DNA from: Escherichia coli
Lineage (GTDB): Bacteria; Pseudomonadota; Gammaproteobacteria; Enterobacterales; Enterobacteriaceae
Direction: 5' to 3' (one strand)
Assembly (NCBI RefSeq): GCF_003334385.1
Contig: NZ_QOWN01000033.1
DNA length: 48,307 nucleotides
Of this stretch, positions 40,211 to 45,570 are shown in pieces (within the stretch, counting starts at the first letter, position 1; every line of letters starts with the position of its first letter). The notes under the pieces were generated by a model. It was not told the DNA's origin. It did no database searches and saw only the letters and a list, made by a program, of their open reading frames with translations. The position numbers and the translations under genes are program-made.

Positions 40211-40326
40211 AAAAAAAGCGGATCCTGGAGATCCGCAAAAGTTCACGTTGGCTTTAGTTATTCGAGTTGAGAAACTCTCGAAACGGGCAGTGACTTCAAG
40301 GGTTAAAAGAGGTGCCGCTCCGTTTC
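40211..40326 (-). ncRNA. oxyS: OxyS small regulatory RNA (about 109 nt) with its terminator
   Basis: Minus strand of 40218-40326 reads GAAACGGAGCGGCACCTCTTTTAACCCTTGAAGTCACTGCCCGTTTCGAGAGTTTCTCAACTCGAATAACTAAAGCCAACGTGAACTTTTGCGGATCTCCAGGATCCGC, matching my recollection of OxyS; the T-tract follows. Confidence 0.9.
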
Positions 40327-41339: not shown

Positions 41340-42722
41340 ACCGTTTAACGCAGCTACCCGATAGGCTTCCGCCATCGTCGGGTAGTTAAAGGTGGTGTTG
41401 ACGAAGTACTCAATAGTGTTGCCGCCACCTTTCTGTTCCATAATCGCCTGACCGATATGAATAATTTCGGCAGCGCGCTCGCCAAAGCAGTGAATACCCA
41501 GAATCTCTTTTGTTTCCCGATGGAACAAAATTTTCAGCGTGCCCACGTTCATGCCGACGATTTGTGCGCGTGCCAGATGTTTAAACTGGGCGCGGCCCAC
41601 TTCATATGGCACTTTCATTGCGGTCAGCTGCTGTTCGGTTTTGCCCACAGAGCTGATTTCCGGGATGGTGTAAATACCGGTAGGGATATCTTCAATCAGA
41701 TGTGCGGTGGCTTCGCCTTTTACCAGCGCCTGCGCGGCAATGCGCCCCTGGTCATAGGCCGCCGACGCCAGGCTCGGATAACCAATCACGTCGCCCACCG
41801 CGTAAACGTGTGGCTGTGCGGTCTGATACATGCTGTTGACCTTCAGCTGTCCGCGGCTGTCAGTTTCTAGCCCAATGTTCTGTAACGCCAGCGAATCGGT
41901 ATTACCGGTGCGACCGTTGGCATAGAGCAGGCAGTCAGCTTTCAGTTTTTTACCCGACTTCAGATGCATGATCACACCATCGTCACAGCCTTCGATCTTC
42001 TCGTACTCTTCGTTGTGACGAATCACTACGCCACTGTTCCAGAAGTGATAGGAGAGAGAATCTGACATCTCTTGATCGAGAAATGCCAGCAGGCGATCGC
42101 GGGTGTTGATCAGATCCACTTTTACATCCATACCGCGGAAGATCGACGCATATTCACAGCCGATCACTCCAGCACCATAGATAAGTACATGGCGCGGTTC
42201 GTGGTGCATGCTGAGAATTGAGTCGCTGTCGTAAATGCGTGGATGGGTGAAATCAACATCTGTTGGATGATATGGACGAGAGCCGCAGGCAATAACAAAT
42301 TTTTCAGCGGTTAGTGTTTCAACGCTGCCGTCCGGGCAATCCAGCGCCAACGTATGCTCGTCAACAAAGCGAGCGTTTCCCTGCAATATTTCACAGTGAT
42401 TACGTTCGTAAAATCCCTGACGCATGCGCGTTTGTTGATTAATCACGTTATCGGCATGGTTAAGGATATCGGCAAAAGAAGAGCGGAGCAGTCGGGAATG
42501 GTCGCTGTAAAGTGGGTTTTGATTGAATTCTATAATGCGGCTGACGGCGTGACGGAGAGCTTTCGACGGGATGGTGCCCCAGTGGGTGCAACCGCCGCCA
42601 ACATTTTGATAACGCTCGATAACTGCGACGCGCGCACCTTGCTTAACCAGGCCCATTGCAGCGCCTTCGCCGCCGGGGCCGGAACCTATTACTATGGCAT
42701 CGTAATCGTAGGAATGTGGCAT
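41322..42722 (-). CDS. sthA: Soluble pyridine nucleotide transhydrogenase SthA/UdhA (466 aa)
   Basis: Full-length [41 protein letters not shown]... with FAD and NAD Rossmann motifs. Confidence 0.96.
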
Positions 42723-43055
42723 GGTAGGGCTTACCTGTTCTTATACATAAAAGCAACAGAATGGTAACATTTTATCGCGGGTAAGCCAATTGATCCCCGT
42801 CATTTATCTGGCTATATCCTGAGCGGCCTTTGCTTTGTCTGTTTCTTACTTTTGCCCTGACGTTTTATTGGATTTTTATCGACGATACTCTCCGTTTAAG
42901 CGGCAGGTTTCCGCTGTACGTAAAAGAACCGGCCAAAGAATTGCAGTAAATATGTTTTATTGCGTTACCGTTCATTCACAATACTGGAGCAATCCAGTAT
43001 GTTCATTCTCTGGTATAGTGCCAGCAGTACTTTTGGCAAGGATTCAGACATCGTG

Positions 43056-43703
43056 ATGGGCGTAAGAGCGCAACAAAAAGAAAAAACCCGCCGTTCGCTG
43101 GTGGAAGCCGCATTTAGCCAATTAAGTGCTGAACGCAGCTTCGCCAGCCTGAGTTTGCGTGAAGTGGCGCGTGAAGCGGGCATTGCTCCCACCTCTTTTT
43201 ATCGGCATTTCCGCGACGTAGACGAACTGGGTCTGACCATGGTTGATGAGAGCGGTTTAATGCTACGCCAACTCATGCGCCAGGCGCGTCAGCGTATCGC
43301 CAAAGGCGGGAGTGTGATCCGCACCTCGGTCTCCACATTTATGGAGTTCATCGGTAATAATCCTAACGCCTTCCGGTTATTATTGCGGGAACGCTCCGGC
43401 ACCTCCGCTGCGTTTCGTGCCGCCGTTGCGCGTGAAATTCAGCACTTCATTGCGGAACTTGCGGACTATCTGGAACTCGAAAACCATATGCCGCGTGCGT
43501 TTACTGAAGCGCAAGCCGAAGCAATGGTGACAATTGTCTTCAGTGCGGGTGCCGAGGCGTTGGACGTCGGCGTCGAACAACGTCGGCAATTAGAAGAGCG
43601 ACTGGTACTGCAACTGCGAATGATTTCGAAAGGGGCTTATTACTGGTATCGCCGTGAACAAGAGAAAACCGCAATTATTCCGGGAAATGTGAAGGACGAG
43701 TAA
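43056..43703 (+). CDS. fabR: TetR-family fatty-acid biosynthesis repressor FabR (215 aa from this start; in-frame upstream ATGs at 42960 and 42999 are alternative starts)
   Basis: ORF contains [52 protein letters not shown]... with TetR HTH. Confidence 0.88.
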
Positions 43704-44062
43704 TGAAACAAGCAAATCAAGATAGAGGTACGCTGCTGCTGGCGTTAGTTGCTGGCTTATCGATTAATGGTACTTTCGCAGCGCTGTTTAGCTCCATTGT
43801 GCCATTTTCTGTATTCCCGATTATTTCCCTGGTGCTGACGGTTTACTGCCTGCATCAACGTTATCTTAATCGCACTATGCCGGTAGGCTTGCCGGGTCTG
43901 GCAGCTGCCTGTTTTATTCTCGGCGTACTGCTGTACAGCACGGTAGTTCGTGCGGAATATCCGGATATCGGCTCTAACTTCTTCCCGGCAGTACTCTCCG
44001 TCATTATGGTGTTCTGGATTGGCGCGAAGATGCGTAACCGTAAGCAGGAAGTTGCTGAGTAA
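43703..44062 (+). CDS. yijD: Small inner-membrane protein YijD (119 aa)
   Basis: [53 protein letters not shown]...; start overlaps the fabR stop (TAATG). Confidence 0.88.
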
Positions 44063-44070
44063 TCGGTATT

Positions 44071-44096
44071 ATGCCGGATGCTGACGCATCCGGCAT
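44071..44096. terminator. REP-like perfect palindrome between convergent yijD and trmA (likely bidirectional terminator)
   Basis: ATGCCGGATGC-TGAC-GCATCCGGCAT. Confidence 0.5.
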
Positions 44097-44101
44097 GGGT
44101 T

Positions 44102-45202
44102 TTACTTCGCGGTCAGTAATACGCCGCACTCCATATGGTGCGTGTAGGGGAACTGATCAAACAGAGCCAGACGTTCGACCTTGTGCGTCTGGCTTAATGT
44201 TTCCAGATTCTTGCATAACGTTTCCGGGTTACAGGAGATGTACAAAATACGCGGATACGCCTGCACCATTTTCTCGGTTTCACTGTCCAGACCGCTGCGC
44301 GGTGGGTCGACAAAAATGGTTTCGCACTGATAACTCTTTAAGTCGATCCCTTGCAGGCGGTTAAACTCGCGCACACCATTCATCGCCTGAGTAAATTCTT
44401 CTGCCGCCATACGAATAATTTGTACGTTATCAATATGGTTAGCTGCGATGTTGTATTGCGCAGCAGCAACCGACGGCTTAGCGATTTCGGTGGCTAATAC
44501 CCGATCAAAATTACGCGCCAGCGCTAATGAAAAGTTACCGTTGCCGCAGTACAGCTCCAGTAAATCGCCTTTTGAGCCTTTGGTTACGTCCAGCGCCCAT
44601 TCCAGCATCTGAATATTCATCGCCGCGTTCGGCTGGGTAAAGCTGTTTTCTACCTGACGGTAGATCATCTCTTTCCCTGCGACCGGCAGACGTTCATCGA
44701 TGTAATCCTGATCCAGCTCGATTTTGGTTTTCGTTGCCCGACCAATCAGATGCACATTCAGATTCTGCGCGCGCAGTGCATCGCGCAGGGCCTCCGCTTC
44801 CTGACGCCACTCATCATCCAGCTTCTTATGGTATAGCAGGGAAACCACCGCCTGATTACTCAGCGTAGTGAGGTAATCAATCTGGAACAACTTGTGGCGC
44901 AGAACGGGATTATTACGCACACCCGCAATCATCGCCGTCATCAACTGGTTGATAAGTTCACTGGCGGCGGGGAAGCTATCCACGCGGATGCGGCTTTTGG
45001 TTTGTTGATCGAAAATGATGTGATACAGGTCATCGCCATCGTGCCAGATGCGGAACTCCGCGCGCATCCGGTAATGACTGACCGGCGAGCGAAACACTTC
45101 CGGAACCAGGTCAGAAAACGGTGCCATCATACTTTGCAAACGTACCACTTTTTCGGCTAACTGCGCTTCATACTGTTCTGTTGGAAGGTGTTCGGGGGTC
45201 AT
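44102..45202 (-). CDS. trmA: tRNA/tmRNA (uracil-C5)-methyltransferase TrmA (366 aa)
   Basis: Full-length [43 protein letters not shown].... Confidence 0.96.
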
Positions 45203-45330
45203 GATGTATCCTGAAAAATTAAAGTACGCGGCGATTGTAGGGATTGCTCATCAGATGTCCAGATCTTGATGAATTCCTATTTGTGAGCTACGTCTGGACA
45301 GTAACTTGTTACAACCTGTAGCATCCACTT

Positions 45331-45570
45331 GCCGGTCCTGTGAGTTAATAGGGAATCCAGTGCGAATCTGGAGCTGACGCGCAGCGGTAAGGAAAGGTGC
45401 GATGATTGCGTTATGCGGACACTGCCATTCGGTGGGAAGTCATCATCTCTTAGTATCTTAGATACCCCTCCAAGCCCGAAGACCTGCCGGCCAACGTCGC
45501 ATCTGGTTCTCATCATCGCGTAATATTGATGAAACCTGCGGCATCCTTCTTCTATTGTGGATGCTTTACA
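45331..45570 (+). promoter_or_regulatory. btuB leader: adenosylcobalamin (B12) riboswitch
   Basis: Leader GCCGGTCCTGTGAGTTAATAGGGAATCCAGTGCGAATCTGGAGCTGACGCGCAGCGGTAAGGAAAGGTGCGATG... with B12-box-like AAGCCCGAAGACCTGCCGG (about 45473-45490) upstream of the btuB ATG. Confidence 0.85.

Follow-up and report, generated by a model that had tools for sequence, protein, structure and literature searches.

Where does translation of fabR begin in Escherichia coli? FabR (YijC, b3963) is a repressor of fabA and fabB, and its operator binding responds to the acyl-ACP or acyl-CoA pool. The window analyzed here, a stretch of 48,307 nt from an E. coli genome (contig NZ_QOWN01000033.1), contains the genes oxyR-sthA-fabR-yijD-trmA. 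Around the fabR start, 988 nt are 100% identical to K-12-type chromosomes, a window position being the MG1655 (NC_000913.3) coordinate minus 4,118,068, and each of the 5,426 complete genomes of E. coli has a match to the fabR-region query. The encoded protein scores 413.6 bits (E = 1.5e-124) against the FabR equivalog model NF008402 of NCBIfam, above the cut-off of 151, with model positions 1-206 corresponding to residues 32-237 of the 247-aa form. For the 234-aa E. coli form, as for its homologues, the precomputed Pfam domains are PF00440 and PF21943. An N-terminal TetR_N helix-turn-helix followed by a helical ligand-binding domain, together with matches to DesT and other TetR-family structures, identifies the protein as a member of the TetR/AcrR family. 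The gene order sthA-fabR-yijD-trmA, with sthA upstream and yijD overlapping downstream, is the conserved FabR neighborhood. E. coli K-12 FabR in Swiss-Prot is the product of the same gene with no sequence difference; it is the annotated start alone that varies between records.

That variation is considerable, since four forms of the protein coexist in public databases (Table 1). The MG1655 gene model has itself changed over time, from 234 aa in 2006 to 215 aa in 2014 and again to 234 aa in the 2026 RefSeq copy; a reason for the return of NC_000913.3 to 234 aa was looked for and not found. In the protein collection, the 90% cluster with the E. coli FabR forms comprises 1,849 members and has a 234-aa representative.

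The fabR frame is open between the upstream in-frame TAA and the stop TAA at 43701-43703, and it contains four in-frame starts, TTG 42960, ATG 42999, GTG 43053, and ATG 43056, from which products of 247, 234, 216, and 215 aa would be made. An earlier sequence-only reading had listed three in-frame ATGs. Those at 42999 and 43056 are indeed ATG codons, but the codon at 42960 is TTG, and the fourth candidate, GTG 43053, had been missed. The lengths of 247, 234, and 215 aa given in that reading are borne out by the open frame, as is its N-terminal extension peptide by translation of the frame. Upstream of 43056, three NTG codons are seen versus about 2.2 expected (45 open codons × 3/61), so the pattern of candidate starts is no more than chance gives. 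The energy of the anti-SD duplex is −5.6 kcal/mol for ATG 42999 (GGAG, 9-nt spacer) and −5.2 kcal/mol for the pair 43053/43056, which shares the SD core AAGGA at 43038-43042, with spacers of 10 nt to the GTG and 13 nt to the ATG. TTG 42960, with +0.4 kcal/mol, has no SD. The use of SD strength as a discriminator was rejected, since −5.6 and −5.2 kcal/mol do not separate the candidates; −5 kcal/mol is reached by 17% of all plus-strand NTG codons in the window. Taken alone, the sequence leaves the fabR start truly ambiguous.

Table 1. Features of the fabR start region and of the adjoining genes, in window coordinates, with the public records that use each start.
Feature	Position	Strand	Remarks
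In-frame TAA, upstream bound of the fabR frame	42921..42923	+	At −135 from ATG 43056
TTG, nominal 247-aa start	42960..42962	+	Without SD; edge of Escherichia-specific DNA; used in a few GenBank entries
Box ATCATTCACAA with TTCACA	42971-42981	+	Conserved in most Enterobacteriaceae, flanks diverged
Candidate sigma-70 promoter TTCACA-17-TATGTT	42975..43003	+	−10 hexamer includes ATG 42999
Perfect 8-bp inverted repeat ATACTGGA-gcaa-TCCAGTAT	42981..43000	+	Escherichia-specific
ATG, 234-aa start	42999..43001	+	Judged not to be the real start; current NC_000913.3 4161067-4161771 (NP_418398.3); Swiss-Prot FABR_ECOLI
Conserved extended −10 element TGGTATAGT	43011..43019	+	Within block TCTGGTATAGTGCC
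Ribosome-binding block GCAAGGATTCA	43036..43046	+	Consensus GGAAGGATTCA
Tandem GTG-ATG	43053..43058	+	GTG 43053, 216 aa: PGAP, in each PGAP-annotated E. coli genome opened (WP_001309117.1; WP_122083113.1 in one); ATG 43056, 215 aa: U00096.3 of 2014, 4161124-4161771, primary profiling site
fabR CDS (TetR-family repressor)	43053..43703	+	
yijD	43703..44062	+	Next gene in the fabR operon

The start region was also compared with that of relatives. For this purpose, 80 Enterobacterales loci were fetched, so that counts are over 81 sequences. None of these lacks an equivalent of ATG 43056 (81/81), and ATG 42999 is confined to Escherichia. In most non-Escherichia genera, an in-frame stop is located 30-54 nt upstream of the conserved ATG; such stops were found in Salmonella, Kluyvera, Raoultella, and Shimwellia and in most Citrobacter, Yersinia, and Serratia. 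Within Escherichia itself, a 1-nt insertion after 43008 puts the E. albertii copy of ATG 42999 out of frame, and in one E. coli genome the frame is closed at −66 by a stop downstream of TTG 42960. In 55 Enterobacteriaceae loci, three-base wobble periodicity is seen from the GTG-ATG pair onward, with the AAGGA SD at a fixed distance.

The protein alignments give the same answer. Conservation starts exactly at MGVRAQQKE, which bears out the earlier claim that no form but the shortest starts at the core. In 99 of 101 full-length members chosen to represent the wider FabR/DesT family, homology begins at residue 28 or later of the 247-aa form, and the N-terminus of the homologue maps to residue 33 (the Met of ATG 43056) in 30 of the 101 and to residues 28-36 in 61. 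The nearest solved structure is that of DesT from P. aeruginosa (PDB 3lsj/3lsp/3lsr, E = 8e-30), an acyl-CoA-sensing TetR-family repressor that is either a paralogue or an orthologue from another order. Its homology spans residues 35-230 of the 247-aa FabR form and runs from DesT residue 4. The DesT N-terminus thus lies three residues ahead of the position aligned with V35, which fits the short FabR form, and DesT has no counterpart of the Escherichia extension.

Start sites can also be mapped experimentally; Ribo-RET (Meydan 2019) reportedly corrects them by initiation-inhibitor ribosome profiling. The main texts of the Salmonella riboproteogenomics paper and of the eLife 2020 paper are silent on fabR. 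Profiling of this kind, which had been proposed as a check on the ambiguous start, has already been published for E. coli. It gave no signal for the long 234-aa start and pointed to 43056/43053 instead (PMC4909307). Nakahigashi et al. (2016) employed tetracycline-inhibited ribosome profiling (TetRP) in three samples of K-12 under the growth conditions of that paper. In their Table S2 (row 58), fabR is assigned a new initiation site at +57 nt from the 2006 start, that is, ATG 43056, which is ranked first, with +54, that is, GTG 43053, as the second candidate (PMC4909307). The read depth is 47.9/32.7/43.2 at 43056 vs. 0/0/0 at the 2006 start, ATG 42999 (PMC4909307); with 0/0/0 against 33-48, the two codons do not behave as two functional starts. 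Table S3 lists fabR, with a shift of +57 nt, among the 63 genes whose re-annotation from 2006 to 2014 matches TetRP (PMC4909307). The fabR row was left without manual inspection and is marked "6. nt" (not tested), and the method is, according to its authors, blind to one-codon differences (PMC4909307).

The comparative data and the published initiation-inhibitor profiling together reject the long forms. The ambiguity noted in the sequence-only reading is real as an annotation problem, given the four forms in public databases, but it does not stand as a biological choice between 247, 234, and 215 residues. As annotation ambiguities go it is an ordinary one, already dealt with, and it implies no new biology. 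We estimate a probability of about 90% that the long forms are artefacts and that FabR starts at 43053/43056. In such a case FabR would have 215 or 216 residues, with initiation at the tandem GTG-ATG ahead of MGVRAQQKE, and the 57-96 nt of open frame upstream would be non-coding DNA that serves as the fabR promoter and 5′ leader. Transcription would begin downstream of ATG 42999, from TGGTATAGT and possibly from a second promoter with the hexamer TATGTT that contains ATG 42999, to yield a leader of about 27-45 nt with the conserved SD GGAAGGA. The two long models, of 234 and 247 aa, would then stem from a frame that is open by chance in Escherichia and from a GGAG that happens to precede ATG 42999.

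The upstream DNA alignment reveals three conserved islands amid diverged sequence, ATCATTCACAA, TCTGGTATAGTGCC, and GGAAGGATTCA. Inside the second of them, TGGTATAGT agrees with TGnTATAAT at 8 of 9 positions, the TGn standing directly before a TATAAT-like hexamer. It shares both the TGn and the −10 layout with extended −10 sigma-70 promoters, and promoter activity here is predicted from sequence; no recognizable −35 is present at 16-18 nt from the element. In 79 of the 81 sequences, which come from three Enterobacterales families, the motif TGnTATAnT precedes the conserved ATG by 30-53 nt. Its distance to the ATG, taken modulo 3, falls into all three classes (36/23/20), and hence the DNA between them is non-coding. 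The element is located downstream of ATG 42999, and transcription from it would be expected to start near 43026 (MG1655 ~4161094). Some 30 nt ahead of the extended −10, the ATCATTCACAA box may be the −35 of the second candidate promoter or the binding site of a regulator. With either promoter, the transcript would probably start downstream of ATG 42999, at ~43010 or ~43026. No fabR entry or coordinate was found in the searchable supplements on transcription start sites of Cappable-seq (PMC4782308), Kim 2012 (PMC3415461), SMRT-Cappable-seq (PMC6131387), and ROSE (PMC10301672).

The block TCTGGTATAGTGCC (43009-43024) is longer than a −10 needs, and it includes a dyad CTGG-N7-CCAG, a possible candidate operator overlapping the promoter. 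A FadR-like site at this dyad over the −10 was considered and rejected: the half-sites of a FadR site are spaced by N5, those of the dyad by N7. No fabB-type FabR operator was found within three mismatches anywhere in the window, which is a weak test of autoregulation. Likewise, 42500-44300 yields no Rfam match at E ≤ 1, i.e., no RNA element in the fabR leader.

The region is also well conserved within the genus. Positions 42985-43070 (86 nt) are identical in 5,044 of 5,425 E. coli genomes, and the remainder (~7%) differ by about one base. All three variant genomes that were opened carry C43030T, within the predicted 5′ leader. Relative to E. albertii, there are one substitution and one indel in 62 nt here and 38 differences in the ~660 nt of the fabR CDS, and the upstream stretch is conserved above the synonymous sites of the CDS. 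Such conservation fits regulatory constraint; by itself, it would be compatible with either a coding or a regulatory function. In the long form, C43030T, the single common polymorphism of the extension, would be the non-synonymous change T11I, and A43026G of E. albertii would likewise be non-synonymous.

Several other readings of the locus should be considered. The possibility that FabR is really made mainly as the 234-aa protein from ATG 42999 has several points in its favor, namely an ATG codon, an open frame, a GGAG SD as good as that of the short starts, a near-invariant sequence within E. coli, and the use of ATG 42999 in both the curated MG1655 RefSeq (NC_000913.3) and Swiss-Prot. It appears very unlikely, however, given the absence of initiating-ribosome reads at 42999 in all three samples, a codon that is missing outside Escherichia, where most genera have in-frame stops, and a frame that is lost in E. 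albertii. In addition, ATG 42999 lies upstream of or inside conserved promoter elements, and the extension is found in no homologue, being a 19-residue hydrophobic tail without a counterpart in the DesT structure. All these arguments apply equally to the 247-aa form. A few database entries do start at TTG 42960 and the frame is open, but TTG is a weak start, has no SD, and sits at the boundary of Escherichia-specific DNA, with the in-frame stop of one E. coli genome downstream of it. That this form is made is scarcely conceivable.

A subtler alternative is dual initiation, with the short form as the main product and an Escherichia-specific 234-aa proteoform made from longer transcripts in some conditions. 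In O157-type strains such transcripts could arise by read-through from the citrate-proton symporter gene directly upstream, whose end at 42949 is separated from fabR by no more than a weak hairpin; moreover, the SD at ATG 42999 is usable, and many genes have two start sites in the TetRP paper (PMC4909307). Against this, K-12 profiling shows no signal at 42999, and the inverted repeat at 42981-43000 would occlude both SD and ATG. On a long mRNA, the 8-bp hairpin would pair the GGAG SD with the A of ATG 42999, and the mean probability of being unpaired is 0.30 for SD plus ATG. C43030T (T11I) and A43026G, both non-synonymous, give no sign of protein-level constraint, albeit in tiny numbers. Dual initiation therefore seems quite unlikely. 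Its evolutionary version, in which Escherichia recently gained a conditional 234-aa FabR proteoform made from read-through or upstream transcripts only, e.g., those of the O157-type citrate-symporter island, has a slim chance at best. If it were true, the hydrophobic, aromatic tail would give this repressor, itself a sensor of lipid composition, a different solubility or membrane association.

With initiation placed at the tandem codons, the real start is GTG 43053, ATG 43056, or both, and the remaining choice is one of a single codon. This choice stays because TetRP cannot separate codons one triplet apart. Fifty-five Enterobacteriaceae loci have the AAGGA SD in common; in their 53 unique sequences, the ATG directly follows a GTG (46) or another ATG (7), and the spacer positions −9 to −7, −5, and −4 vary around the kept −3 codon. 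This suggests that the −3 codon may itself be maintained as a start codon. An SD spacing of 10 nt, as for GTG 43053, is also more typical than the 13 nt of ATG 43056. ATG 43056, for its part, occurs in every sequence and was the first-ranked TetRP site, and at −3 Yersinia (ATT), Serratia (CAA/CAT), Erwinia (AAC), and Tatumella morbirosei (ACG) have triplets that are not start codons. The two options differ in the mature N-terminus, which would be GVRAQQ... after Met removal in the case of the ATG and MMGVRAQQ... in the case of the GTG.

The main value of these results is in annotation hygiene, as gene predictions in the protein collection often share the long form. The 234-aa models of NC_000913.3 and Swiss-Prot are probably wrong, being 19 residues too long, and the first 19 residues of the reference 234-aa FabR very probably correspond to promoter and leader DNA. 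An expression construct based on the long model would give a DNA-binding protein a hydrophobic tail that is not native to it. Deletions planned on that model to begin just past ATG 42999 would remove the native fabR-yijD promoter and the SD, and as a result yijD phenotypes may be confounded.

The surroundings of the gene offer some further observations. In TAATG (43701-43705), the stop codon of fabR overlaps the start of yijD, which suggests translational coupling of the two genes within the operon. A GC-rich hairpin (ATGCCGGATGC...GCATCCGGCAT) at 44070-44096, between the convergent yijD and trmA, is probably a bidirectional terminator. In strain RM13322 (locus L003, NZ_CP050498.1, 2802-3609), ~800 nt stand in place of fabR and the 5′ part of yijD. 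The idea of a natural fabR-less E. coli was rejected in this case, since the 808-nt replacement is G-free and of low complexity with long C runs and is almost certainly an assembly artefact.

About one in four of the complete E. coli genomes sampled, those of O157 type, have genes for an M20 aminoacylase and a citrate-proton symporter between sthA and fabR, an example of this two-gene island being 10-2535 of locus L002 (NZ_CP038494.1). All that the K-12-type window retains of the symporter ORF is its final 35 nt at 42915-42949, ending with 42947-42949, a remnant that looks like a deletion scar. The ATACTGGA/TCCAGTAT repeat and the T-rich stretch after it were flagged as terminator-like, and the hairpin could be a weak terminator of the symporter gene in island-bearing strains. 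Most other members of the 90% identity cluster with the 247-aa FabR form are 438-aa citrate-proton symporters, apparently a quirk of clustering that calls for caution with cluster names. Elsewhere in the window, Rfam matches at the gathering score are the ClpQY promoter element at 4463-4520(-), the L31 ribosomal-protein leader at 9132-9184(+), the ES036 sRNA at 10164-10205(+), the OxyS sRNA at 40217-40326(-), and the cobalamin riboswitch of the btuB leader at 45316-45505(+).
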